Source: Blastocatellia bacterium
GTDB lineage: Bacteria > Acidobacteriota > Blastocatellia > HR10
DNA: 64,000 bases
Assembly (NCBI GenBank): GCA_035573895.1
Contig: DATLZR010000015.1
Coordinates: 7,387 to 71,386, forward strand
Direction: 5' to 3'
This document shows, piece by piece, positions 1-15,456 of this stretch. Under the pieces are notes generated by a model. It saw only the letters and a list, made by a program, of their open reading frames with translations. It was not told where the DNA came from and searched no databases. The translations under genes and the position numbers were made by a program. Every line of letters starts with the position of its first letter. The first letter of the stretch is position 1.

Positions 1-1066
1 CCACCGCTCCTCCCCTGGCGAGAACCCGCTCGATAGCCCGGTCGAGAAGATTGGGAGTGGCTTCGAGCGCGCCCCCGCAGTAGAGGCATGCATGAGTGGC
101 CGCGTCCAGATAGAGGGCGCCACAGGCCGTACAGACGGAGCCCTGAAGCATCGAGTTCCTCGCATACAGGAGCCGCCAGACGCGCCCCTCCGAGACCGCC
201 TGAATCGTATCCGCGGCACCGACGGTCGCATTCCCTCCTTTATGGGCCGTCGTCACCAGTTTCTCAACAAGCTCCAGCTCTCTGTTTCGCTCAGTCGCCG
301 CCTCGATTTTCTGCACCTCGGCCAGAATGTCAGATACGGACGCGGTGATGGGAACCGAGATCGTCCCCACGACGCGCGACCGCAACGCCTTCGGCAGGAC
401 TCGCTGAAGCTCGCTCACGGCTTCAACCGTCCCGCCCAGCACTAACCGATCAAAGTGATACTGAGCCGCCAGCTCGGTCAGTTTTTCGGCGACGTTCTTG
501 ACATGACCGTGAACGTGTTGATCGTGGTGCCGCTGCAGGTTCTTCTGCGACCAGAGCCGATCGGTGCTCGTGGTCACAGTTCGTCGGGGCACCTCGTCGA
601 AGACCTGATGATGTTCCTCGACGTCGCCGAGGTAGACGGTGAACAATCGCGCCCGTTCCTTATCCACCAGCACGACGCCATAGCGCTCATACTCATCGAG
701 CGCCTCGACCAGCGGCTGATAGTACGGCGCAGGAGCGAACCGCGCCACCGAGGGAAGAATGATGGGAAGATCACGATCCCACCAGAATCCCCGACGGGAA
801 TCGCTGAAGATGACCAGACTCTTCTTCCGGGGGGTGTAGTCCCGGATAAAACGGAGAACCTTTTCCCGATTCGCTTCGAATTCCGAGCGAAGATGGTTGG
901 AGATGTCCCGTTCAACCTCTTTGAGGAGCTGAGTCGCCGTTCGCTCAAATCCTCGATTGAGATTACCCGGCTTGGACTGATCCACATCAAGATAGAGGCT
1001 GAGGACGTGACCCTCGCCCTCAGGTCCGTAACGCTGGAGCATTTCCAGATCCCTGTATGAAACCAT
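1..1066 (-). CDS. baeRF/eRF1-Pelota-like protein with C-terminal CxxC..CxxC zinc ribbon. The 3' end runs off the window start.
   Basis: I translated the minus strand myself from the ATG at 1066 (MVSYRDLEMLQRYGPEGEGHVLSLYLDV...). The ORF track omits it because it is open at the edge. The central segment YGVVLVDKERARLFTVYLG resembles the eRF1/Pelota domain-2 start. The C-terminus has CTACGALYLDAATHACLYCGG. The + strand ORF 455..1060 and the - strand ORF 574..1110 are its shadows. Confidence 0.5.
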   Translation of the reverse strand, partial: MVSYRDLEMLQRYGPEGEGHVLSLYLDVDQSKPGNLNRGFERTATQLLKEVERDISNHLRSEFEANREKVLRFIRDYTPRKKSLVIFSDSRRGFWWDRDLPIILPSVARFAPAPYYQPLVEALDEYERYGVVLVDKERARLFTVYLGDVEEHHQVFDEVPRRTVTTSTDRLWSQKNLQRHHDQHVHGHVKNVAEKLTELAAQYHFDRLVLGGTVEAVSELQRVLPKALRSRVVGTISVPITASVSDILAEVQKIEAATERNRELELVEKLVTTAHKGGNATVGAADTIQAVSEGRVWRLLYARNSMLQGSVCTACGALYLDAATHACLYCGGALEATPNLLDRAIERVLARGGAV

Positions 1067-1140: not shown

Positions 1141-2679
1141 TTACTCCGATTTTTCCTTCAGCCGCTCCACCGTGAACCGCCAGTACGTCACCGGGGTGCC
1201 CGGTGGGATGCCCGCTTTGCGCAACGCCAGCTCGATCTGCCTCTCCACCGTCGTAATTCCCGGCAGATCGGGCAGGAGCAATCCCCTCCGTCCGTCGGCG
1301 CTCTCCACAATCAATCCGTAACGCGAAGGATCGAGATCGTTCGGGCCCGCGACCCGCTCCGGCGGGGACAGCACATCAACCGAAAAGACCAACCGATCGA
1401 GTTCATCAGCAGTCACCGGAGGAAATCGAGGGTCAGCCGTTGCCGCCGACACGGCATTGTGAATGACTTCCTCGACAATGGTCTTGCGCGTCGGGTGAAT
1501 CGTTCCCACGCAGCCGCGCAATTCACCGTCGCGGGTCTTGATGCTGACGAAAACGCCCGACGGGCGCGCCCATCGTCCGCTGATGGGCTCCGGAGCCGGC
1601 ATGATCTTTCCCTGAGAGAGATAATAGGCGACCGATTGCCGGGCCATAGCAGGCAGATCAATCTCCGGTTGGGCTGCTGCCGCCGGTTCAGGAGCGGGAT
1701 CCAGGCCCGGCGACGCCGCCACGTCGCTTCGTTCCGTTCGATCGCCCTCGGCGGACGGCTCCTTTGATCCATTGTCCGAAGAAGAATAGTCGGCCAGTAC
1801 GGCCGCCATGTAGCCGACGCCGAACGGACCCTCGTAGGAAAAGACCTCCGTGCGATGGAGTTTCCGGCCGATGGCGCCATAGGCGATGAGCAGCGAACGA
1901 TAGATGTCCTCGCCGGCTTCCTCCCGCAGATCGGGATCAATGGCGAGAATCTTCTCGAAATCACCTTCTCGAAGAGCGGCGACGATGGCCTCGTCATAGA
2001 GATGGGCGCGTTCGCTGAACCCTGCGGGTGCATCCGGCTTCAGCCGATGACTCATGTCTCCACTGGCACAAATGGCCAGGCGGAGGTTCAATTGTGCAGC
2101 GGCATCAGCAATCGCCTCGCCAAAGCGGACATGCTCCCTCGCGGGCAAAAAGGAGAGTCCCACCACAGCTACCTTCGATGTCCACCCCGCTTTCACCAGA
2201 TAGTAGAGTGGAACCATCGTGCCGTGATCGAGTCGCCGACCGGCGGGAATAAGCCAGAGGGGAATGTTTCGCTCCTGGCACAGAGCGGCCAGCCGAGACA
2301 GCAAGACGAGGTCATTGCTGATGGTGAACTCCACCTCCGGGGCGCCGAAATCCCAGAAGTCGCCTCGCAATCGGGGTCCACTATAGGCGCTGAATGAACG
2401 AGGATCCAGCGGTGCATGAGGACTGATGATGACGACCGTATCCGGTCCAGAAGCTACCAGCCGCTGCATCATCCGCTCAACGCCGCGGACCGTCGCCATG
2501 CACTCGGCCAACCGGTCGCCTCCGATCTCCGGGACGATAATTGGCGGATGCGGCGAGACACCGGCAAATACGACAGCCGATCTCATAGGCCTGACCTCCT
2601 TGTTGAATCTCGGCGAGCGGCCTGCACTCGAACCCCTGCACCAGCGTCGTCGGCCCCCTCCGGCGACGACCGTCCTCAT
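1141..2679 (-). CDS. Fusion protein: N-terminal LigB/Memo-like class III extradiol dioxygenase fold plus C-terminal AMMECR1 domain
   Basis: 512 aa. The N-terminal half has LigB-family motifs (VVIISPHAPL, LDHGTMVPLYYL, ICASGDMSHRL). The C-terminal part has AMMECR1 hallmarks (SGVFVSIKTRDGELRGCVGTI, DPRFPPV). Its start overlaps the ftsH stop by 4 nt. Confidence 0.65.
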   Translation of the reverse strand: MRTVVAGGGRRRWCRGSSAGRSPRFNKEVRPMRSAVVFAGVSPHPPIIVPEIGGDRLAECMATVRGVERMMQRLVASGPDTVVIISPHAPLDPRSFSAYSGPRLRGDFWDFGAPEVEFTISNDLVLLSRLAALCQERNIPLWLIPAGRRLDHGTMVPLYYLVKAGWTSKVAVVGLSFLPAREHVRFGEAIADAAAQLNLRLAICASGDMSHRLKPDAPAGFSERAHLYDEAIVAALREGDFEKILAIDPDLREEAGEDIYRSLLIAYGAIGRKLHRTEVFSYEGPFGVGYMAAVLADYSSSDNGSKEPSAEGDRTERSDVAASPGLDPAPEPAAAAQPEIDLPAMARQSVAYYLSQGKIMPAPEPISGRWARPSGVFVSIKTRDGELRGCVGTIHPTRKTIVEEVIHNAVSAATADPRFPPVTADELDRLVFSVDVLSPPERVAGPNDLDPSRYGLIVESADGRRGLLLPDLPGITTVERQIELALRKAGIPPGTPVTYWRFTVERLKEKSE

Positions 2680-4553
2680 CCCGCCGGGGGTTGTACATCC
2701 CTTTCCGAGGCGGATCCGGTCGGTTCTTCCGCCTCCTGCAGCAGTCGCATGAGTTCCGCCCGATCCAGCGTCTCCCGAACCATCAATTCCTGAGCAATTC
2801 GCACCAACGCTTTTTCTCGCTGCACAAGCAGCGACCGCGCTCGATCATACGCCTGGGCGATGAGCCGGTTCACTTCGTCGTCAATGATCTGGGCCGTCTC
2901 CTCGCTGAAATCTCGCTCCTCGGCCGCCGGCAGAGGACCGCGCAGAAACTGGCCGTCGAGCGGGCGTCCGAACGTTCGCGGTCCCAAGCGCGTGCTCATG
3001 CCGAAACGCGTCACCATCTGCCGGGCGATTTCGGTTGCCTGCTCCAAATCGTTATGCACCCCGGTGGAGGACACCCCGAAGATCAGTTCCTCCGCCGCTC
3101 GCCCGCCCAGAAGCACGGCCAGGCGATCCTCGAGTTCCGACTTGGTGTAGAGATAGCGGTCGTCCGCCGGCAGTTGCAACGTAACGCCGAGCGCTCCAAT
3201 CGAGCGAGGGATGATCGTCACCTTGTGAACCGGATCGGCATGAGGCAGCGACAGCGCCACGAGCGCATGACCAACTTCATGATAAGCGACGCGTTCTTTG
3301 ATGGCCGGAGACATGGCACGATTCTTTTTCTCCAACCCGAGCATGACGCGGTCAATCGCCTCCTCAAAGTCGCGCATCTCGACCGCCTCCGAGCCTCGTC
3401 GGGCGGCCAGAAGCGCCGCCTCATTCACGATATTGGCCAGATCGGCACCCACCATCCCCGGCGTCCGCGCCGCCAGCACGCGGAAATCCACATCGGCCCC
3501 CACGCGAACCTTTCGGGCATGGACCTTGAGGATCTCCTCACGACCGGTTATATCCGGGCGATCTACGATGATGCGGCGATCAAATCGCCCGGCCCGGAGC
3601 AAGGCCGGATCCAGGATCTCCGGTCGGTTGGTCGCCGCCATGATGATGACGCCCTTGGAGGAATCGAATCCGTCCATTTCGACGAGGAGCTGATTGAGCG
3701 TCTGTTCCCGCTCATCATGCGCTCCGATGAAGGCTCCCCCGACGGCCCGCATCTTGCCGATCGCATCGAGTTCATCAATGAAGACGATGCAGGGGGCCTT
3801 TTTCTTGGCCTGCTCGAAGAGGTCGCGGACGCGCGCCGCCCCCACGCCGACGAACATCTCGACGAACTCCGATCCCGAAATCGAGAAAAACGGAACGCCC
3901 GCTTCCCCGGCCACCGCCCGCGCGAGCAGGGTCTTCCCCGTTCCCGGAGGTCCGACGAGCAGAACGCCTTTGGGGATGCGCCCGCCCAGGCGCTGGTACC
4001 GAGCGGGACTCTTCAAAAAATCCACGATCTCGACGAGTTCAGCCTTGGCCTCATCCACGCCGGCGACGTCGGCGAATGTGACGCGCTGGTCGCTGCTGGT
4101 GTCGTAAATTTTCGCCTTGCTGCGGCCAAAGGTCAGGACGCTACTGCCCCCCTGCGCCAGCCGCCTCATGCCATAGCCCCAAATCGCTCCCAAAATCAGC
4201 AGCGGCAGCACCCAGTAGAGGAAGAACTGCTCCAGCCAGGAAGTGCGCTCAATCACCCCGGAGAATTTCACCTGCCGTTCCTGCAGTTCCTTCAGCAATG
4301 ACGTCTCTTCTATGCCGGGAAGTCGAGTGGCGACCACCAGCCGATTCCCCTCCCGGAGGCGGGCGCGAATCTCACTCTCGCCGATCCAGACCTCCGCGAC
4401 TTTGCCGCTCCGAAGGTGATCGAGAAGTTCACTGTAGGGAATCGGGTGAGGACGAGGAAAGGGGCTGAACTGCTGGAGCGAGATCAGCAGTCCCACCGTG
4501 AGGATGAGATAAAAGATGTTGAAGACCCACTTTTGTCGCGTGGTCTTATCCAT
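2676..4553 (-). CDS. ftsH: ATP-dependent zinc metalloprotease FtsH
   Basis: 625 aa. N-terminal TM helices, AAA+ Walker [31 protein letters not shown] zinc motif. Confidence 0.95.
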
Positions 4554-4715
4554 CGTTCGATTCCGACACCGAGATCGCGCCCGACAAGCACTCCCCCGGA
4601 GTCAAGGACTGCACGCCGTCACTCGAGCTAATGCGTTGCCCGAAAGCCGGTCGGAAAAGCCGCCCCGCGAGGATTCCTTTCAGCGCCACTGCCGGCCTCT
4701 CACGCGGCGTTCACC

Positions 4716-5012
4716 TTAGGCCGCCTTGCGAAACTCCGGCTGACCGAACAGCTCTTCTTCGGTGATCTCGCGTCCGGTCTCTAAATCGGGATCGGCGCTA
4801 TCAACGAGGAAATAGCGTCGGTTGCCGGGAATGCGCCGTTCGATCCATTGGCGATTGAGAACGGCCGGGACGTAAACGATCAGATCGGGATTCGAATTTT
4901 TACTCCGTCGGACTCCCAGCTCGCTATCCCAGACGGCGATATAGGTGTGGCCTCCTCGCTCGAGGGTCAGGATGTCACCGTTGGCCCGTCGCAGGATGTA
5001 ATAGGTTGCCAT
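4716..5012 (-). CDS. Hypothetical small protein (99 aa) downstream of htrA
   Basis: Internal ATG at 5012 preceded by GGAGGGGG RBS (MATYYILRRANGDILTLERGGHTYIAVWD...). The longer track ORF 4716..5201 has a low-complexity N-extension overlapping htrA. No recognisable domain. Confidence 0.4.
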   Translation of the reverse strand: MATYYILRRANGDILTLERGGHTYIAVWDSELGVRRSKNSNPDLIVYVPAVLNRQWIERRIPGNRRYFLVDSADPDLETGREITEEELFGQPEFRKAA

Positions 5013-5175
5013 CGCTTGCCCCCTCCATCGCCTGAGATAATTATGGCCATCACCGAATCGAGACTTCGCGCGGTGACGACGATCACCCGCCCGCTGTCCA
5101 ACCTCAAATCCTCGTGAGAGAGGAACCCGAGGCGTCTCGGGCTCCTCCTCCCTGATACGCGAAGCGACATATCGC

Positions 5176-6792
5176 TCAACCGCGCGGGGCGATGTCCACA
5201 TAGCCAGTGCTGCCTGAGCGCGAGAAGTAGACGCGCAGCAGGGCCCGCCGTCGCCCGACCCGCGAGACAGCCTGACGAAACGCTTCCACCGATGTCACCG
5301 GCTGCCGATTCACTTCAATGATCACGTCGCCGGGTTGCAATCCGACTTCGGCCGCGGGGCTGTCCGGGTCAATATCGCTGATGATCACACCGGTGATGCT
5401 TCGAGGAATATCAAAGCGATTGCGCAGCGAGGGCGTCAGCTCATCCACGGCGATTCCACTGAGCGTATTCCCGCTGTCATTGGATTCCGGCATGCGGCTC
5501 ACCCGCTCCGCCGGTCGCTCACCAAGCTCCACCGTCACTTTTTGTTCGCGCCCGTTACGGATGAGCGTGAGCGTCACCCGCGTTCCCGGCGGCGTCAATC
5601 CCACCATGTTTTTCAGGTGATCGGCGTCGTTGACGCGCTGTCCGTTGAACTCAATGATGACATCGCCGTTGCGGATTCCCGCGCGATCGGCCGGTCCATC
5701 CGGCACGACATTTCCCACGAGTGCTCCCCGGCGATCCTTCAACTCGAATTGCTCGACCATCCCTTCGGTCAGGTTCTGGATCTCCACTCCGAGATACCCG
5801 CGAACGACCTTGCCATACTTGAGAATGCGGTCCATCACCTCGCGGGCCATATTGATGGGAATGGCGAACCCGACGCCGGCATTGGCCTGTATGCCGCGCG
5901 TGAAGATGGCCGTGTTAATGCCGATCAACTCGCCCCGCATGTTGACCAGAGCGCCACCGGAATTCCCCGGATTGATCGCCGCGTCCGTCTGAATGAAATC
6001 GCCATACTCGGCAATTCCCAGGTTTCCGCGACCGGTCGCGCTAATGATGCCAAAGGTGACCGTTTGCTGTAACTCCCGCCGAAACGGATTCCCGATGGCG
6101 ATGACGAAATCGCCCACCTGCACCCGCGACGAATCACCCAGGGTGATGGCCGGAAGCTTCTGGGCGTCAATCTTCAGCACAGCGACATCACTTTGAGGAT
6201 CCGTTCCGACGACGCGCGCTTTGAAAACACGCTGATCGGCCAGCCGCACGGTGACCTCTGTCGCTCCCTCGACCACGTGATTGTTGGTCAGAATGTAGCC
6301 ATCCGGACTCACGATCACGCCCGATCCGAGCCCTTCCTGCGTATATTCGCGGGGTTGACGGGGAGTGCCGAAAAATCGGCGGAAGAAGGGATCGTCGAAA
6401 AAGAAATCAATCCCTTGAGATCGCACCCTTGACTTGGTCTCGATGCTGACGACGGAGTCGCGCACAGCCCGGACGACCGGGCCGAGACCTTCGGTGAGCG
6501 ATACGTTGCCCATACTGGAGCCGGAGGCCACGGGCGCACCGCTGGCGAGATAAATGGGCACGCGGGAATCGTTGCGAGGAAATGGCGCCCAGGACGTCCA
6601 CGCCGTGAGGATCGAGCCCATCACCGCACCAATGAGAAGCAGGAGAGTGACTCCCGCCCCCAGGCGCACGCGCCGATCTCTCAGCCACCATCCGGGGGAC
6701 CACCCCCGGCGACTCGAGGCAACCGTGGACCGGTCGAACTCGGCCGCAGTCGGTTGTAGCGAAGCGTCGGGTTTGACATTCATCGTTTCCAT
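5176..6792 (-). CDS. htrA: HtrA/DegP-family periplasmic serine protease with two PDZ domains
   Basis: 538 aa. TM/signal region, trypsin-like motifs GYILTNNHVVEGA and GNSGGAL, two C-terminal PDZ-like segments. Confidence 0.9.
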   Translation of the reverse strand: METMNVKPDASLQPTAAEFDRSTVASSRRGWSPGWWLRDRRVRLGAGVTLLLLIGAVMGSILTAWTSWAPFPRNDSRVPIYLASGAPVASGSSMGNVSLTEGLGPVVRAVRDSVVSIETKSRVRSQGIDFFFDDPFFRRFFGTPRQPREYTQEGLGSGVIVSPDGYILTNNHVVEGATEVTVRLADQRVFKARVVGTDPQSDVAVLKIDAQKLPAITLGDSSRVQVGDFVIAIGNPFRRELQQTVTFGIISATGRGNLGIAEYGDFIQTDAAINPGNSGGALVNMRGELIGINTAIFTRGIQANAGVGFAIPINMAREVMDRILKYGKVVRGYLGVEIQNLTEGMVEQFELKDRRGALVGNVVPDGPADRAGIRNGDVIIEFNGQRVNDADHLKNMVGLTPPGTRVTLTLIRNGREQKVTVELGERPAERVSRMPESNDSGNTLSGIAVDELTPSLRNRFDIPRSITGVIISDIDPDSPAAEVGLQPGDVIIEVNRQPVTSVEAFRQAVSRVGRRRALLRVYFSRSGSTGYVDIAPRG

Positions 6793-6892
6793 GTTTCACT
6801 CCTTCCGTCATCGAAGAATTTCGGCCAGCTCCTCCGATGCGATTGGCTGCCGGCCCTTGATGTTATGACGTTCTCCCGCACACCCGATCGGG

Positions 6893-9541
6893 CTATTCGC
6901 TGGCGACCGGAGCGGCGGCCCGCTCAGTCGAAAAGACCAATCTTCCGCCGTCATAATCCACCGTGACACGGGAATTATCGCGCACCTCTCCCTGCAAGAC
7001 CAGCTTGGCCAGAGGATTCTCCAGCTCGCGTTGAATGACCCGCTTGAGCGGACGGGCCCCGAAGACCGGATCGTACCCGACGCGCGCCAGCCACTCCCGG
7101 GCGGCATCGGTCACGTGGAGCGCGATCTGCCGGTCACTCAGCCGCTGCTGCAACCGGCGAAGCTGAATCTCGACGATCTCTTTGAGATGGTCCTCGGTCA
7201 ACGCATGAAAGACGACGATCTCGTCCACCCGGTTGAGGAACTCGGGCCGGAAGGTTCGCCGAAGTTCCGCCAGAACCGTCTCCTTCATCCGCTCGTACCG
7301 ATCGCCGCTGGCGGCGCCACGATATTCGAGGATGAGATTGCTGCCGATGTTGGAGGTCATGATGATGATGGTGTTCTTGAAATCAACCGTGCGACCGTGA
7401 CTGTCGGTCAGCCGCCCATCGTCGAGAATTTGCAAGAGCAGATTGAAGACATCCCAGTGGGCCTTCTCGATCTCGTCAAAGAGGACGACCGAATAGGGAC
7501 GCCGTCGAACCGCTTCGGTCAATTGCCCGCCCTCCTCGTAGCCGACGTAGCCGGGCGGCGCTCCGATCAGGCGAGCGACCGAATGCTTCTCCATGTACTC
7601 GGACATGTCAATGCGAATGAGCGCCCGTTCATCATCGAAGAGCGACTCGGCCAGCGCGCGGGCCAGCTCCGTTTTCCCCACGCCGGTGGGACCGAGGAAA
7701 ATGAAACTGCCGATGGGCCGATTGGGATCTTTCAATCCGGCGCGCGCCCGACGCACGGCCTCGGCCACGGCGCTCACGGCTTCGTCCTGGCCGACGATCC
7801 GGCGATGCAGTTCCTCCTCCAGGCGGAGCAACTTTTGAATCTCCCCTTCGAGGAGCTTGCTCACCGGGATGCCCGTCCAGCGACTGACGACCTCGGCGAT
7901 GTCTTCCTCATCCACTTCTTCCTTGAGTAATCGCGTTCCCCCGCGCTGCTCGACCAGCTCGGTGAGGGCTTTCTCGCTCTCTCGAATCTTCCTCTCCAGC
8001 TCGACGAGTCGTCCGTACTTCAATTCGGCCGCCCGATTCAGATCATACGCCCGCTCCGCTTGTTCGATGAGGATCTTCGTCTCCTCGACCTGCTCACGGA
8101 GCTGGCGAAGATCGGCGATGATTTTCTTCTCCTGCTCCCATTGAGTTTTGAGCCCATCGGCCTGGACGCGCAATTCGGCCAGCTCTTCTTCGAGCTTGCG
8201 CAACCGTTCCCGCGAAGCGGCATCCGTCTCCCGCTTCAATCCCTCGCGCTCGATTTCCAGTTGCATGATGCGCCGGAGGATCTCGTCCAGCTCCGACGGC
8301 ATCGAGTCAATTTCCGTACGCAGCCGCGCGGCCGCTTCATCCACCAGATCAATGGCTTTATCCGGGAGAAAACGATCGGAGATATAGCGGTTGCTCAGGA
8401 CGGCGGCCGCGACCAGAGCGGAATCCTTGATCCGCACGCCATGATGCACCTCGTAGCGTTCCTTCAGGCCGCGAAGGATCGAGATCGTATCTTCAACGCT
8501 CGGCTCCCCCACGAGGATGGGTTGGAAGCGTCGCTCTAGCGCGGCATCCTTCTCGATGTACTTGCGGTACTCGTCCAGAGTGGTCGCGCCGATGCACCGC
8601 AGCTCGCCGCGCGCCAGCATGGGCTTGAGGAGATTTCCCGCATCCATCGTGGCTCCTTCCGCCCGACCGGCTCCGACGACCGTGTGCAACTCGTCAATGA
8701 ACAGGATGATCTCTCCCTGCGACTCCTGAACCTCGCGCAAAACCGCCTTGAGCCGTTCCTCAAATTCGCCGCGATACTTGGCCCCGGCGATCAATGCGCC
8801 CATGTCGAGCTGGACGACCCGCTTGTGTTTGAGCCCTTCGGGGACATCGCCTCGAATGATGCGCTGAGCCAGTCCTTCAACAATCGCCGTTTTCCCCACG
8901 CCGGGCTCACCGATGAGGACGGGATTGTTTTTCGTCCGGCGGGAGAGAACCTGCATCACCCGACGAATCTCCTCGTCCCGTCCGATGACAGGATCGAGCT
9001 TCCCCTGACCGGCTAACTGCGTGAGATCGCGCCCGTAGCGTTCGAGCGCCTGATAGGTCGCTTCGGGCGTGGGACTGGTGACGCGCTGCGTCCCGCGAAT
9101 TTGCAGCAGGGCTTTCATCAAACGATCGCGCGTCAGACCCGCCTCAGCGAGAATACGGCCCGCCGCTGTCGCTCGCCCCTCCTCCACCATGGCGAGGAGA
9201 ACATGCTCGACGCTGATGTACTCGTCGCGGAACTTCTTCGCCTCATCCTCGGCCGCCACAAACAACCGATTGAGTCGCCCCGTGAGATAAACCTGATCCG
9301 GTCCGGCGGCCGGTCCGCTCACTTTCGGCCAGCGGGCCAGTTCCTGCTCCAACCGGGTGATCACCTGAGCCGGATCAACGCCCGCCCGTTGCAGGATCGT
9401 GGGAGCCAGACCACCTTCCTGCTGCAGCAACGCGAGCAACAGATGCTCCACGTCAATGTGCTGATGGCTATAGCGAGCGGCGATCGCTTGAGCCGCACGA
9501 ATTCCATCCTGAAGCTTTTCCGTCATTCGGTTGATGTCCAT
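6893..9541 (-). CDS. clpB: Chaperone ClpB (Hsp100 disaggregase)
   Basis: 882 aa. Clp N-domain, two AAA+ modules ([15 protein letters not shown] and [15 protein letters not shown]), long coiled-coil M-domain. Confidence 0.95.
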
Positions 9542-9544
9542 AGG

Positions 9545-10483
9545 TTACTTCACCCCATTTGATCGCGGATTGAACTTCGATTCCCGAGCCAACTGCTCGA
9601 AGAGTTTCCGTTCGGCGGCCGTTGGACGCGGCGGGACGACGATCTTCACTTCGACGTATTGGTCCCCCCGGCCTCCCCGACGACGCGTCAGACCCTGACC
9701 GCGCAGCCGGAGCTTTTGCCCCGTTTGCGCTCCCGGAGGCAGACTTACCTCCGCCATTCCATCGAGCGTCGGCACGAGAATTTTCGCTCCCAGGACAGCC
9801 TCCCAGGGCGTCACCGGCACCTCCGTGTACAGATCATCGCCGGAGACTTTGAAGATGGGATGCGGCTGGAGTTTCACCCGGAGATAAAGATCGCCCGCCA
9901 TACCTCCGGCCTGTCCGCCCTGGCCGGCAAGCCGGATGACAGAACCATCGCGGACGCCCGCCGGAATCTTCACTTCCAGCGACTTTCCCGTCGGGAGCGT
10001 TAAGCGTCGCGTCGTTCCCCGATGAGCTTCTTCGAGCGAGAGTTCAATCTCCATCTCCACGTCAGCAGCGCGACTTCCCCAGCGCGTTGTTGTTGACGGC
10101 CCCGCGTGGCGTCCTGCCGGGCGACCTCGCAACCCACCAAAGAGCGTCTCAAAGAAATCGCTGAAGCCGCCGGGCATACCGGTGAAGAAATCGAAATCGC
10201 CAAAATCGAGGCGAATCCGCTCCCACCCCGGCGGAGGCGTGAACTCGCTGCCCGCTTTCCAGTTGGGGCCGAGGCGATCATAAAGCTCCCGCTTTTTCGG
10301 ATCGCCGAGGACCTCGTAGGCTTCGTTGATCTCCTTGAACTTCTCCTCCGCCGCCTTGTCACCGGGGTTAACGTCCGGATGGTACTTCCGCGCGAGCCGA
10401 CGGTAAGCCGCTTTGATCTCTTCCTGGCTGGCTGTCCGTGGCACGCCGAGGATTTGATAGTAGTCTTTGTAGGTGACGGCCAT
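9545..10483 (-). CDS. cbpA: J-domain co-chaperone, CbpA-type (DnaJ homolog lacking the Cys-rich zinc finger)
   Basis: 312 aa. N-terminal J domain (DYYQILGV...KYHPD), then Gly/Phe-like linker and two C-terminal beta domains. No CxxCxGxG repeats. Sits 4 nt upstream of clpB. Confidence 0.75.
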
Positions 10484-10571
10484 CGCCTTCGATCACCCAG
10501 CACACCGTGGTTGAGAAAGTCAACTTGTCAACAACGCCCCTCCACGCACAGGGAGAGGATCTGGCCCTTCA

Positions 10572-11054
10572 TTATCCTCGCCAGCTCAGCATCTGGATCA
10601 ACTCCGAACGAGCCAGATTCTCCTCCCGGCGAGCGGCACTCAGCTCCGCCACCGCCCGCTGGTACTGTTCCCGCAACTTCTCCGGGACACGAGGTCCGGC
10701 ATCCCGCGCCTGACAGTTCAAATCGCGGACCCGTTCGAGCGCCTCCCGGACCCGCTCGCGAGCCGCCAACAACCGCCGCATGAGACGGGCTAACACCTCC
10801 TGCCGCGTCTCGTAGCGGTAGGCAGCCTCTTCCTCCTCTTCCTCATACCCCTCTTCAGGAAGGTAGGCGGACTCCGCAGCCACTTCCTGAGCAACGGCCT
10901 GAGGCTCCTCCTCGACGTACTCCTCGACGGCTTCCTCGCCGTAGTAGTCGGCGTCGTCGTAGGGTTCGAGCGCTTCCGTGTAATCCTCGAGCGGCGCCGG
11001 TTCGACCGGTGCGACTTCCGGTTCCTCAACCTGATTTTTCTTTCGTCGTGGCAT
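10572..11054 (-). CDS. Acidic Glu/Tyr-rich protein with basic coiled-coil C-terminus (hypothetical), between dnaK and cbpA
   Basis: I chose the internal ATG at 11054 (MPRRKKNQVEEPEV...), preceded by a GGAGGG RBS. The longer track ORF would overlap the dnaK 3' end. No GrpE-like beta domain. Confidence 0.45.
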   Translation of the reverse strand: MPRRKKNQVEEPEVAPVEPAPLEDYTEALEPYDDADYYGEEAVEEYVEEEPQAVAQEVAAESAYLPEEGYEEEEEEAAYRYETRQEVLARLMRRLLAARERVREALERVRDLNCQARDAGPRVPEKLREQYQRAVAELSAARREENLARSELIQMLSWRG

Positions 11055-11085
11055 TCGTGATTTTCCCTCCTCTCTTGTTGAAATT

Positions 11086-12975
11086 TCAGTTGCTCGGCTT
11101 AAATTCGGCATCAATGACATCATCGGACGATGTGCTGGAACCGGACGATCCCGAAGCTCCCGCACCTGCCGATGTCGCTTGACTATAGGCAGCCGCTGCA
11201 ATCGCATGAGCGACCTGCTGGAGGTCGGACGTCAGTTGACGAATTCGCTCAATTCCCGCCTCCTCTTTGATGGCCTGACGAATCTGGCTGATGAGATCTT
11301 CGGCGCGAGCGCGTTCGTGAACCGGAACCTTGTCGCCCAGGTCGCGCAAAGTCCGCTCGACCTGATAGGCCAGACTGTCGGCTTGATTGCGCGCCTCGAC
11401 CAGCTCGCGCTTCCTCTTGTCCTCTTCGGCATACATCTGAGCGTCCCGGATCATGCGCTCGATCTCTTCCTTGGAGAGCTGGGTCGAGCCGGTGATGGTG
11501 ATCTTTTGCTCCCGACCCGTCGCTTTATCCCGCGCGGTCACATTGAGAATTCCGTTGGCATCAATGTCGAAAGTCACCTCGATCTGAGGGATGCCGCGAG
11601 GAGCCGGAGCGATTCCCTCCAGCCGGAACCGACCGAGCGTGCGATTGTCCCGAGCCATCTCGCGCTCTCCCTGAAGAACGTGGATGTCCACGGCCGTTTG
11701 ATTGTCCTCAGCAGTGGTGAAGATCTCCGTGCGACGGACGGGAATCGTCGTGTTCCGCTCGATGATGCGGGTCATCACACCACCGAGGGTCTCAACGCCG
11801 AGACTGAGCGGCGTCACGTCGAGCAGCAAGACTTCCTTCACCTCTCCGGCCAGGACGCCCGCCTGAATCGCTGCGCCAACAGCGACCACCTCATCGGGAT
11901 TGACCGATTGATTCGGCTCCTTGCCCAGCAGCCGACGGACGAGTTGCTGGACGGCGGGCATGCGGGTCGCTCCTCCGACGAGGATCACCTCGTCAATCTG
12001 ATTCTCGGACAATTTCGCATCGGCCAGGGCTTGCTTGACCGGTCCCACGCATCGCTCGACGAGATCGGCCGTGAGCTGTTCGAATTTCGAGCGCGTCAGC
12101 TTCATCTCCAGGTGCTTCGGTCCGTACGCATCGGCCGTGATGAAGGGAAGACTGATGGTCGTCTCCATCACCGACGACAGCTCGATCTTCGCTTTCTCCG
12201 CCGCTTCGGTCAGCCGCTGCAGCGCCTGGCGATCCTTGCGCAGATCAATGCCGTGCTCGCGCAAAAATTCTTCGGCCATCCAGTCAACGATCCGCTTGTC
12301 AAAATCGTCCCCGCCAAGATGCGTATCGCCGCTGGTGGCCTTCACCTCGAACACCCCATCTCCCACCTCCAGGATGGAGACATCGAAGGTTCCGCCTCCC
12401 AGATCGAAGACGAGGATCGTCTCGTTCTTCTTCTTGTCCAGTCCATAGGCCAATGCCGCGGCCGTCGGTTCGTTGATGATTCGCAGCACATTCAGACCAG
12501 CGATCTTGCCCGCATCGCGCGTGGCTGAGCGCTGGGCATCATTGAAATAGGCCGGCACGGTGATGACGGCATCGGTGACCTTCTCGCCGAGGTAGCGCGA
12601 CGCCTCATCGGCCAGTTTCCGCAAGACCATGGCGGAAATCTCCTCGGGGGCGTAGAGCTTGCCCATCACCTCAAACCGAACAGCATCGTTCGGCCCGGGA
12701 ACGACCTTGTAGGGGACGTTCCGAATCTCGCTGGTGACCTCGGTGTAGCGTCGCCCGATGAACCGTTTCACCGAATAGAGGGTGTTCTCCGGGTTCAAGA
12801 TCGCCTGACGCTTGGCGAGTTGCCCGACCAACCGCTCGCCCGTCTTGGTGAAGGCGACGACCGATGGCGTCGTCCGCCCCCCCTCGCTGTTGACGATCAC
12901 GGTCGGTTTTCCTCCCTCCATGATCGCCACCACGGAGTTTGTCGTTCCTAGATCAATGCCAATTGCCTTCGCCAT
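11086..12975 (-). CDS. dnaK: Molecular chaperone DnaK (Hsp70)
   Basis: 629 aa. [27 protein letters not shown], typical Hsp70 substrate-binding and lid regions. GAGGAGG RBS. Confidence 0.97.
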
Positions 12976-13024
12976 CGTGGTTCCTCCTCACTGAGGTTGA
13001 TCTCCAAGGCCCTGACCGGAAGCC

Positions 13025-13267
13025 TCACGTCGCCCCTCGCGTCGAACGCGACTTCCGGCTCACCGGCTTCTCACTCGCGGGCCTCTCATAGGGAATTCTG
13101 TCGTGAATGAGTTCCTTGAAGGCTTGATTTATCGCCCAGGAAACTCCCGGAGCATCCTGGTGCCGCACCAACTGCTTCGCTCGCTTGGAAACGAGCGTGC
13201 AGATTAAATAGCGGCTGTCCATTTTCGCAATAGCCTCCTCGACGAGCTGTTCTCTCGTGTCAGCCAT
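13025..13267 (-). CDS. rpoZ: DNA-directed RNA polymerase omega subunit-like protein
   Basis: 80 aa. KMDSRYLICTLVSKRAKQL matches the RpoZ core (xxNRFxLVxxAAKRARQL). Strong RBS AGGAGGAG. Confidence 0.55.
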   Translation of the reverse strand: MADTREQLVEEAIAKMDSRYLICTLVSKRAKQLVRHQDAPGVSWAINQAFKELIHDRIPYERPASEKPVSRKSRSTRGAT

Positions 13268-13336
13268 AACTCACTCCTCCTACTTTCGTCCTCCGACTCG
13301 GTTATATCCCCGCGCCTTGCAGGCCACCCTGAGCCA

Positions 13337-13343
13337 TTATACA
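13337..13343 (-). promoter_or_regulatory. Consensus TATAAT (TGTATAAT) at the hsp20 stop codon: possible internal promoter for rpoZ-dnaK
   Basis: The minus strand reads CATGTATAATGG, overlapping the hsp20 TAA stop. A perfect -10 hexamer in a 65% GC background. The -35 candidate is weak (TTCGGA). Confidence 0.25.
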
Positions 13344-13780
13344 TGATTCCCCTCCCCAGTCCGAACCGGAATACGACGGCGTCGCTTGGGCACCCGCAAA
13401 AGCAAAATGCCATCGTTCAGCTCCGCGCTGATCCGGGTGGGATCAACATCTTCGGGAAGCAGAAAGGTCCGAGAAAAATCCCCATACGGCCATTCAATGT
13501 GACGCAAGCGCGCCTTCTGCCATGGCCCCACCAGACGGCGGCCGTCAATGGTTAACTTCCTCCCTTCAACCTTAACCTGAAGGGATTCCCGGTCAACTCC
13601 GGGAAGGTCAACCATAACGGCCATCTCCTCGTCCCCAATGAAGATATTGGCAGGAGGGGAAAATCCTGCAGTATCCGACTGCACCCGGCGCTGTGACACG
13701 CCGGCGAACCACTGATCAGTCCTCACAAGCCGTACGCTTGCGAGATCCTCGACCGGATGAATGCTCTGAACTTTGACCAT
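13337..13780 (-). CDS. Hsp20/alpha-crystallin family small heat shock protein
   Basis: 147 aa. Alpha-crystallin domain pattern (MVDLPGVDRESLQVKVEGRKLTIDG...AELNDGILLLRVPK). Confidence 0.85.
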   Translation of the reverse strand: MVKVQSIHPVEDLASVRLVRTDQWFAGVSQRRVQSDTAGFSPPANIFIGDEEMAVMVDLPGVDRESLQVKVEGRKLTIDGRRLVGPWQKARLRHIEWPYGDFSRTFLLPEDVDPTRISAELNDGILLLRVPKRRRRIPVRTGEGNHV

Positions 13781-13832
13781 CGCTCGGCACCTCTACACGC
13801 TGATCTACTTAAGCCGATCTGTAGAATAAAAT

Positions 13833-13851
13833 ATGAGTCCCATTTTGTCAA
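13833..13851 (-). promoter_or_regulatory. HAIR-like operator overlapping the hsp20 promoter (-35 TTGACA)
   Basis: Minus-strand reading TTGACAAAATGGGACTCAT. The TTGACA doubles as a -35, with a TATTCT-like -10 17 nt downstream. Lies in the AT-rich 217-bp intergenic region. Confidence 0.5.
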
Positions 13852-13933
13852 TATGAGGACGAAAATTTTCATCCCTCGAAGCCCAAACCAATGGAAGCTC
13901 TCCGATAAATAATGAAGCATTGCTCCGACTAAA

Positions 13934-13954
13934 CTTGACAAAAAGAGACTCACA
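13934..13954 (+). promoter_or_regulatory. HAIR-like operator (CTTGACA-N7-ACTCACA) overlapping the hspR promoter
   Basis: Matches CTTGAGT-N7-ACTCAAG at 10/14 positions. Near-identical to the inverted copy at 13833..13851 (TTGACAAAA.G.GACTCA shared). The TTGACA serves as a -35, with a TAGCAT-like -10 downstream. Confidence 0.5.
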
Positions 13955-13997
13955 TATTAGCATAAGGACGGCCTTTCGAGATGGGAGGTGCCAAACA

Positions 13998-14483
13998 ATG
14001 CGGGGCGTGAGCAAAAAGCGAAAAGAAAAAGGATACACCATTAGCGCCGTGGCCGAAGCCTATGGGATTCACCCTCAAACTCTTCGGCTCTACGAACGCC
14101 ATGGCTTGCTCAAGCCGTCCCGCTCCAAAGGGAATACCCGCTACTATTCGGAAGCCGACCTTCGCTCCCTGGAGCTGATCCTGACGTTGACCCGAGATCT
14201 GGGCGTCAATCTCGCGGGTGTGGAAGTGATTCTCAACATGCGGCGGAAGATGGATGCCTTACAGAAGGAAGTGCAGCGATTCATCGAGTACTTACGGGCG
14301 GAGGTTGGAGAACGATTGGCCAATCAGGCAGCCGCCAAGTTTGCGCTTGTCCCCCTGGGACAGACGCCGATAGTCACGATCGAGGAGGACCGGTCGGCGA
14401 TCTTCGAGGGAGATGCGACCCTAGTAGAGGAAGACAATCATACATCGAAAGGAGGTGAGATCTTATTAGCAAAGAAGACATGA
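13998..14483 (+). CDS. hspR: MerR-family heat-shock repressor, HspR-like
   Basis: I chose the ATG at 13998 ([40 protein letters not shown]...), preceded by a GGGAGG RBS. MerR HTH plus coiled-coil. The longer track ORF starts at 13920. The stop overlaps infA. Confidence 0.7.
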
Positions 14484-14689
14484 TTCCTGTTGACGCGACC
14501 GTCATCGAGGCGCTCCCCAATGCGACATTCCGGGTGAAGCTCGATGGCAATGGTCACGAAGTTTTGGCCCATCTCTCGGGCAAAATGAGGAAGAACTACA
14601 TTCGAGTCCTGCCGGGAGACCGAGTTCAAGTAGAGCTGTCACCCTACGATTTAACACGCGGACGGATCACCTACCGGTACAGCAAGTGA
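14480..14689 (+). CDS. infA: Translation initiation factor IF-1
   Basis: 69 aa with an S1-like OB fold ([50 protein letters not shown]). ATGA overlap with the hspR stop. Confidence 0.95.
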
Positions 14690-14691
14690 CG

Positions 14692-15456
14692 TCATTCCCC
14701 TGTGATGAGGTCCCACTGGGCGGCGAGGGCTGTGCAAAATTCGCTAAGCTCGATGTGAAGGACCACGTCGGCGATGTCATCGTAAGGTGTGGGCTCGCGG
14801 TTGACGATGATAATTTTGGCACCTGCCTCTCGCGCCCGGCGGGGAAGTTCCGCTGCTGGATAGACAACCAACGACGAGCCCAGAACCATTAAAAGATCAC
14901 ATTGTGCGACGACCTCGAGAGCGCGAGCCAAGACCTCTCCTGGGAGCGGATCGCCAAACAGCACGAGGTCGGGTTTGAGGATGCCGCCACAGCCACACCG
15001 TGGCGGAAGATCTTTCGGGTTTCCCCGAGCCAGCACCTCAGCCAGACCGATGCTCTGCCCGCAACGCGTGCACCGGCACTGCCGATAGGTTCCATGAAGC
15101 TCAATGACGGAAGTGGAACCGGCCGCCTGGTGAAGCCCGTCAATGTTTTGCGTGATGATCCACCGGAGTTTCCCCGCCTGTTCCAGGCGAACGAGAAGCC
15201 GATGCGTCTCCGTCGGACGGGCCGCTAGCAATGAGGGAAGAAGCGTGAGGGCTGTTTCGTAGAACTTTTTGGGGAACAACCGAAATCCCCAGGCGCTCAG
15301 ACGCGCCATCGCCTGGGGATCACTCCATAATCCCGTCGGGCTCCGGAAGTCGGGAATACCGGCATCGGTACTCACGCCCGCTCCGGTCAGAGCTGCCGTC
15401 CGGGATGACTGCCGGATCAGTTCGATGGCACGAGTGATCGTCATCGGCTCATCCAA
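14692..15456 (-). CDS. cobB: NAD-dependent protein deacylase (Sir2 family)
   Basis: 254 aa. GAGVSTDAGIPDFR, and a Zn-binding CxxC...CxxC pair (CRCTRCG...CGCGG). Confidence 0.9.
   Translation of the reverse strand: MDEPMTITRAIELIRQSSRTAALTGAGVSTDAGIPDFRSPTGLWSDPQAMARLSAWGFRLFPKKFYETALTLLPSLLAARPTETHRLLVRLEQAGKLRWIITQNIDGLHQAAGSTSVIELHGTYRQCRCTRCGQSIGLAEVLARGNPKDLPPRCGCGGILKPDLVLFGDPLPGEVLARALEVVAQCDLLMVLGSSLVVYPAAELPRRAREAGAKIIIVNREPTPYDDIADVVLHIELSEFCTALAAQWDLITGE

Follow-up and report, generated by a model that had tools for sequence, protein, structure and literature searches.

The 217-bp region between hsp20 and hspR (13781..13997) lies in the window, the whole 64-kb stretch of DNA that was analysed, and has a GC content of 39-42% against about 60% in its flanks, so that the AT-rich promoter region described in the original prediction is present. 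It separates a leftward unit, which begins with hsp20, from a rightward one, which begins with hspR, and the genes on both sides of it are the following.

13998..14483, plus strand: hspR, MerR-family regulator of 161 aa (Pfam MerR_1, 67 bits; NCBIfam HspR equivalog, 101.2 bits)
14480..14689, plus strand: infA, encoding IF-1 (Pfam eIF-1a, 95.9 bits), with its start overlapping the hspR stop (ATGA)
13337..13780, minus strand: hsp20, first gene of the leftward unit (Pfam HSP20, 67.2 bits)
13025..13267, minus strand: rpoZ-like gene of the omega/Rpb6 family, 80 aa (Pfam RNA_pol_Rpb6, 31.7 bits, cutoff 26)
11086..12975, minus strand: dnaK (from the list of open reading frames; called as a gene with Pfam HSP70 in assembly L081)
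10572..11054, minus strand: acidic 160-aa open reading frame between dnaK and cbpA (a gene call of 160 aa in L081)
9545..10483, minus strand: cbpA/dnaJ-like co-chaperone gene, product without a zinc-finger domain (Pfam DnaJ and DnaJ_C)
6893..9541, minus strand: clpB (from its translation), beginning 3 nt after cbpA
5176..6792, minus strand: gene for an HtrA/DegP-like protease, beyond clpB
4716..5201, minus strand: 161-aa open reading frame without a family, beyond clpB
2676..4553, minus strand: gene for FtsH, beyond clpB
1141..2679, minus strand: gene for a LigB+AMMECR1 fusion, beyond clpB

The gene to the right of the region had been predicted to encode an HspR-like regulator of the MerR family, and the family searches agree with this. 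Its product scores 101.2 bits against the NCBIfam equivalog NF047375, just under the cutoff of 105, while the next non-HspR NCBIfam family reaches 44 bits, and the Pfam models MerR_1, MerR_2 and MerR give 67, 53 and 48.7 bits, respectively. Six acidobacterial orthologs score between 93.1 and 112.6 bits against the same HspR model, two of the six being above the cutoff of 105, and a model of fused-homodimer HspR proteins gives 107 bits with the window protein, far under its cutoff of 300. With HspR as by far the best family, the window regulator appears to be of the HspR type. The same 161-aa hspR is called as a gene in the public, SRA-derived assembly L081, where the intergenic region is identical, and no database record holds the exact protein sequence. 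The closest solved structures are those of MerR, GlnR, TipA and CueR, and none of the solved structures is of an HspR protein.

A genome scan with the window HspR protein yielded 80 loci, nearly all titled Acidobacteriota and a few carrying other MAG labels, with the best matches in Blastocatellia MAGs at 72% identity. Most of these loci have hspR at the end of a dnaK-(hsp20)-dnaJ-hspR operon, and it is divergent, as in the window, in the nearest relatives L001-L004 and in L011. The infA gene stands directly 3' of hspR in 6/6 loci with the divergent layout (L001 8473-8679, L002 1157-1363, L003 8468-8671, L004 8466-8669 and L011 8470-8667 in the relatives) and in none of the loci of the dnaK-operon type, and in the window it is probably co-transcribed with hspR. 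Since infA is an essential gene, its position behind a repressible hspR promoter would require leaky repression or an unseen internal promoter.

On the other strand, the leftward unit reads hsp20-rpoZ-like-dnaK-orf-cbpA-clpB, with gaps of 3-90 nt. The promoter scan found no promoter-like sites between the genes from hsp20 to clpB, and the one terminator-like match on their strand, a weak stem of 5 bp, falls within the coding sequence of cbpA; the short distances between the genes and the lack of terminator-like sites suggest a single transcription unit that would extend from hsp20 through clpB. The window clpB is 86% identical to its homolog in L001, where the gene order is the same. The rpoZ-like gene scores under the NCBIfam rpoZ cutoffs, and its homologs lie downstream of the leftward-type promoter in four relatives (L001 7467-7661, L002 146-340, L003 7276-7464 and L004 7226-7402), in which it is the nearest recognisable gene after the HAIR-like promoter, so that it may represent an RNA polymerase omega subunit, or a paralog of it, under HspR control. 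The product of the 160-aa open reading frame matches no Pfam or NCBIfam family; it is very acidic, has a predicted coiled-coil-like C-terminus, and its gene occupies the place that grpE has in actinobacterial operons. Beyond clpB, no promoter- or terminator-like sites were found among the htrA, 161-aa, ftsH and LigB/AMMECR1 genes (1141..6792), nor was a separate HAIR-like site found before htrA or ftsH. The genes on this side may be a cluster for proteostasis that spans about 12 kb; in Deinococcus, ftsH is an HspR target.

Within the intergenic region, two near-identical sites had been reported, and both are present. They coincide with two promoters, and the elements are as follows.

13833..13851, minus strand: core of site 1, TTGACAAAATGGGACTCAT (read directly)
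13935..13953, plus strand: core of site 2, TTGACAAAAAGAGACTCAC (read directly)
13832..13852, minus strand: candidate HAIR-like operator 1, ATTGACA-AAATGGG-ACTCATA, merged with the leftward promoter (direct read)
13934..13954, plus strand: candidate HAIR-like operator 2, CTTGACA-AAAAGAG-ACTCACA, merged with the rightward hspR promoter (direct read)
13846..13851, minus strand: -35 hexamer TTGACA of the leftward hsp20-operon promoter, which is the left arm of operator 1 (promoter scan)
13823..13828, minus strand: -10 hexamer TATTCT of the leftward promoter (promoter scan)
13935..13940, plus strand: -35 hexamer TTGACA of the hspR promoter (promoter scan)
13958..13963, plus strand: -10 hexamer TAGCAT of the hspR promoter (promoter scan)

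The minus-strand copy lies exactly where it had been placed, and the plus-strand copy starts at 13935, one position later than predicted, 13934 taking in the preceding C. The two cores agree in 16 of their 19 positions (15 in the original prediction) and in 21 of 25 when extended; a repeat search likewise gave arms of 25 nt (13827-13851 and 13935-13959) that are 84% complementary and have 83 nt between them. The pattern TTGACAAAANGNGACTCA has no further match in the 64-kb window, even with 3 mismatches.

Both sites are the top sigma70-like matches of the promoter scan in the 8.5 kb from 6500 to 15000, each at 10/12 with a 17-nt spacer, and the proposal that TTGACA serves as the -35 hexamer of the respective divergent promoter therefore holds for both copies. 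The pair had also been described as head-to-head, which is right for the -35 hexamers, since these face each other; the promoters themselves are back-to-back, because transcription diverges. The predicted transcription starts are near 13816 for the leftward unit and near 13970 for hspR, which leaves about 36 and 28 nt, respectively, to the ATG of hsp20 and of hspR. The -10 hexamer on the hspR side (TAGCAT or TACGAT) is weaker than that on the chaperone side (TATTCT or TATTAT), which fits a low, homeostatic output of the regulator. The hspR ATG lies 45-64 nt downstream of site 2, which overlaps the -35 hexamer of this gene. Each 21-bp site spans -36 to -16, that is, the -35 hexamer and the spacer, with the right arm ACTCA inside the 17-nt spacer; of the overlap with -35 and -10 that had been proposed for the repressor, the part concerning the -35 and the spacer stands, and the -10 lies outside the site, barring protection of flanking DNA. 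Two short repeats were also seen in the region: the 8-mer GAGGTGCC makes up the ribosome-binding region of both hsp20 and hspR (13786-13793 and 13985-13992, on opposite strands), and a second copy of AATATGAG at 13850-13857, just upstream of the leftward -35, occurs in the window only and is probably due to chance.

Several other kinds of heat-shock control element were sought in the same DNA. A scan of the region against Rfam gave a sub-threshold snoRNA chance match only and no known RNA thermometer. The CIRCE element (TTAGCACTC-N9-GAGTGCTAA) was not found in the window, even when up to 3 mismatches were allowed, and the TTAGCA within site 2 is part of the -10 region only, not of a CIRCE element. 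The CtsR box (tandem GGTCAAA-N3-GGTCAAA) has no match near 13781-13997, and its 5 matches elsewhere in the window are at chance level. An operator of an activator in the style of MerR, CueR or SoxR was also considered. Activators of the MerR type bind a dyad centred in an over-long spacer of 19-20 bp and activate through DNA distortion; here, unlike in that geometry, the centre of the dyad is near -26 and the dyad takes in the -35 hexamer, and the optimal 17-nt spacer at both promoters rules such an operator out. A 17-nt spacer is also found at 30 ACTCA sites of relatives, in a search whose pattern fixed the spacer at 17 nt.

The conservation of the sites was followed in the 80 loci. The pattern TTGA[CG][AT]-N7-ACTCA occurs 46 times in 1.07 Mb (the 80 loci plus the window), with 1.15 occurrences expected, and 44 of the 46 matches share the layout cTTGACAA-N6-ACTCA-n-a-T-tt-TATAnT, in which 43/44 sites keep the T at -15 and the -10 is preceded by a conserved A/T-rich stretch. 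In nearly every locus that includes the upstream region of dnaK, the top or only match of a position weight matrix (PWM) lies 54-182 bp upstream of that gene in dnaK-(hsp20)-dnaJ-hspR operons, and the module stands before such operons in most of the 80 loci; matches also stand before cbpA-hspR-clpB in L056, before clpB in L011, and before both divergent units in L001-L004. When the window is aligned with L001-L004, whose HspR proteins are 60-72% identical to that of the window, only the two promoter/operator blocks are invariant, and the DNA between them varies in length and sequence. At site 2 the invariant block reads AAACTTGACAAA....GACTCA.ATATTA..AT, and the -10 hexamer of hspR is either TAGCAT or TACGAT in the relatives. 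The centre-to-centre distances of the two operators, 82, 82, 102, 122 and 123 bp, seemed to rise in steps of 20 bp, but the distance in L011 is 107 bp and a helical phasing of the operators is unsupported.

For an independent PWM, 33 sites at dnaK promoters of other acidobacterial loci were used, and neither the window nor its close relatives contributed to it. It gives 35.7 bits for site 1 and 31.8 bits for site 2, and 1.6 bits for the next best position of the window, the maximum over ten block-shuffled windows being 9.6 bits. These values bear on the simplest account of the two 19-mers, which is that their likeness arose by chance or by a recent local duplication and has no function. Shuffling lends this account something, in that 4 of 100 shuffles contained at least 2 matches to TTGACAAAANGNGACTCA when 3 mismatches were allowed; nevertheless, each copy is conserved in relatives with HspR proteins 60-72% identical and each exceeds 30 bits with a matrix made from unrelated loci, which effectively refutes it and leaves it a negligible probability.

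Other conserved elements were seen in these loci. Those of the Thermoanaerobaculia type (L025, L042, L050, L061, L066, L067, L070 and L074-L076) have a back-to-back pair of another kind, located 70-130 bp upstream of dnaK and formed by TTGACn-N7-ACTAAGGTTnTAnACT on the dnaK side and by the leftward TTGACAAA-N5-ACGCAGATTTATTCC, with the -35 boxes about 18 bp apart. The long 5' leader of the leftward promoter contains a conserved stem-loop, GGCTAAAAGC...GCTTTTAGCC, in L001 (about 7745-7785, minus strand) and L002 (about 435-475, minus strand); the window, in which the promoter is followed by hsp20 instead, does not have it. At dnaK promoters (L009, L015, L018, L037 and others) a conserved gcACTAA is found 7-10 nt after the -10, in the predicted start region, with a second copy, tgcACTAAtg, about 35 nt beyond it; this conserved sequence may be an RNA element of the leader or an added protein site. 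An unrelated promoter-like sequence, TTGACAAGnCCGGnGTAyTCTGTTAGATT, lies on the plus strand 4-5 kb downstream of hspR in several loci (L010 12991, L013 9381, L018 13282, L032 7696 and L069 10213).

The reach of the element beyond the 80 loci was assessed in metagenomes. An exact-pattern scan with the left-hand variant AATAAAATATGAGT-N8-GTCAA gave at least 122 matches in at least 120 contigs, and 108 of the matches listed had the 450 nt or more of downstream DNA that made them testable. A homolog of hsp20, clpB or dnaK lies within 1 kb downstream in 104 of these 108 (hsp20 then clpB in 66, hsp20 in 24, clpB in 11, hsp20 then dnaK in 2, and dnaK in 1). Among the 122 matches listed, the sixth base of the -35, which the pattern left unspecified, is A in 121 and the -10 is TATTAT in 116; no further divergent site pairs were added by the matches listed. 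Both surveys bear out the expectation that the motif would be non-random and would stand before other heat-shock genes. Known HspR targets are dnaK, clpB and lon in Streptomyces coelicolor, hsp70, clpB and acr2 in Mycobacterium tuberculosis, and hsp20, ftsH, dnaK, dnaJ, lonB and clpB in Deinococcus (PMC2687793). The gene set downstream of the element is that of the known HspR regulons.

The region could also be read as two strong promoters of the housekeeping type, in which the spacer and the T at -15 would be intrinsic to the promoter, through polymerase contacts or DNA shape, with no repressor involved. The perfect -35 hexamers and 17-nt spacers, together with the retention of the T at -15 in 43 of 44 sites and the conserved A/T-rich stretch before the -10, are in line with such a reading. 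It is nonetheless very unlikely, because ACTCA is lacking from about 24 further TTGACA-N17-TAnnnT sites of these loci, so that promoter spacers in these genomes do not generally contain it, and because the element is confined to chaperone and hspR promoters (the 104 of 108 among the metagenome matches listed). Moreover, a pentamer fixed at spacer positions 8-12 is not known to be a sigma70 contact.

The original prediction had likened the sites to the canonical HAIR, CTTGAGT-N7-ACTCAAG (PMC6102357). What the sites share with it is the N7 spacing of the arms and the arm cores CTTGA and ACTCA; the left arm keeps CTTGA, and its last two bases are changed to CA, which makes the perfect -35 hexamer. 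The rest of the likeness is weaker than had been suggested, as the two sites match the canonical element at 10/14 and 9/14 positions, a level equalled by 146 other 21-mers in the window, and a search of the window for the canonical HAIR with up to 3 mismatches missed both sites. The self-complementary part within each site is TGA/TCA only (3/7 arm positions), and dyad symmetry this low is unusual for a homodimeric protein of the MerR type. With matches of 9-10/14 frequent by chance, the likeness to HAIR was dropped as stand-alone evidence, and the sites exceed chance because they are conserved elsewhere, not because of their HAIR match. Five relatives have CTTGACA-N7-ACTCAAG, which agrees with HAIR at 12/14 positions.

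These values also matter for another reading, namely that the ACTCA element is the operator of a different heat-shock regulator and that HspR acts elsewhere, or not at these promoters. The link between HspR and the sites rests on association and on HAIR likeness, the canonical match is not significant alone, and there is no co-variation between protein and site: the recognition helix (11 residues) is invariant in 80/80 loci, and the right-arm variants GCTCA, ACTAA and ACGCA occur with the helix unchanged. On the other hand, the site lies in the promoter of the hspR-encoding operon in dozens of loci of several classes, and an hspR gene that stands apart from the operon has a copy of the site to itself. 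Its arm spacing and right arm equal those of experimentally defined HspR operators, the content of the regulon equals that of known HspR regulons, and neither CIRCE nor a CtsR box is present. A different regulator is consequently considered unlikely.

The interpretation that is preferred, and judged quite probable, is that the 217-bp region holds two divergent sigma70-type promoters, each with a putative HspR operator of the form (C/A)TTGACA-N7-ACTCA(C/T)A, a HAIR variant, at which HspR would repress transcription. Most likely these modules let HspR turn off its own gene and the neighbouring chaperone operon. Across Acidobacteriota, TTGACA-N7-ACTCA is found at the promoters of dnaK operons that include hspR and at those of hsp20-clpB operons, as would be expected if HspR controlled a regulon that includes its own gene, and in this respect the autoregulated switch put forward in the original prediction gains support. 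HspR would be the protein that binds both sites, and, by analogy with characterised systems, repression would occur by occlusion, with DnaK as a putative co-repressor.

At normal temperature, an HspR dimer would occupy -36 to -16 of both promoters, probably aided by DnaK as co-repressor as in actinobacteria, and the bound HspR would bar sigma region 4 and RNA polymerase from them. This would repress both hsp20-rpoZ-like-dnaK-orf-cbpA-clpB and, in the other direction, hspR(-infA). Under heat or proteotoxic stress, HspR would leave the DNA and both units would be derepressed, and fresh HspR and DnaK would then close a negative feedback loop, with the hspR(-infA) promoter subject to negative autoregulation. 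A more far-reaching version of the switch is doubtful. It would have the operator fully fused to the core promoter, with one arm serving as the -35, HspR and sigma region 4 competing for one set of six base pairs and any gain in operator symmetry costing promoter strength; the module would have been duplicated in the window lineage into a divergent switch that places an omega-like subunit and IF-1 under heat-shock control, possibly with cooperation between HspR bound about 100 bp apart.

The arrangement would be a known kind of switch, autoregulated repression by HspR at HAIR, here in the phylum Acidobacteriota; no literature on HspR operators in Acidobacteria was found in a limited search, which leaves the absence of a published description unproven. 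Acidobacteriota are very abundant in soil and hard to culture, and almost no promoters or regulators have been defined experimentally in them. The analysis offers an operator and promoter consensus for their heat-shock regulon, cTTGACA-N7-ACTCA-N5-TATAAT, which is usable for annotating heat-shock regulons in MAGs and from which genetic tools could take a strong promoter that probably responds to temperature. It would also be a clear example of an operator merged with a -35 element, and the general picture of HspR biology is unchanged by it.

Among known systems, that of Streptomyces coelicolor and S. albus (dnaK-grpE-dnaJ-hspR, clpB and lon) also has an HspR of the MerR family, and hspR is tied there to the dnaK operon, as it is in most acidobacterial relatives, where it is likewise the last gene. 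The S. coelicolor operator consensus is TTGAGY-N7-ACTCAA or TKGARTNNNYNNRAYTCA, with the right arm RAYTCA/ACTCAA (PMC2687793), which the right arm GACTCA of the sites described here fits. Arms 7 nt apart, a right arm (R)ACTCA(A), and dnaK and clpB as targets, putative ones in the window, are therefore common to both. The acidobacterial left arm differs in being TTGACA, a perfect -35, and not TTGAGT, which makes the site strongly asymmetric. Moreover, the window has a single site per promoter, hspR has been split off in the window lineage and is divergently transcribed with its own copy of the site, and there is no grpE in the window operon.

In M. tuberculosis, the HAIR probe of the hsp70 operon that HspR binds in vitro is CTTGAGC-N7-ACTCATC (PMC10415612). 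This bound element is imperfect too, and it shares the right arm ACTCAT with window site 1 and with L001-L004. The regulon of M. tuberculosis includes the alpha-crystallin/hsp20 gene acr2 and clpB, and the window unit contains hsp20 and clpB; the model of DnaK co-repression and negative feedback from that organism is the template for the mechanism proposed here. The differences lie in the phylum, in the promoter context and in positions 6-7 of the left arm. HspR turnover mediated by Bpa and the proteasome is specific to actinobacteria.

In Helicobacter pylori and Campylobacter jejuni, an imperfect HAIR-like repeat overlaps the core promoter of the autoregulated operon of cbpA and hspR (Pcbp), and in C. 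jejuni clpB (Pclp) is likewise repressed by HspR. The footprint of HspR in these bacteria measures 45-80 bp, and additional dimers are recruited to weak sites on its flanks, whereas no conserved flanking sites are seen here except the A/T-rich stretch by the -10, and the window region has no partner site for HrcA (CIRCE). Lastly, in Deinococcus radiodurans HspR controls hsp20, dnaK, dnaJ, clpB and ftsH, and the window resembles this set in its hsp20, dnaK, dnaJ-like and clpB genes, with htrA and ftsH further along the same strand.
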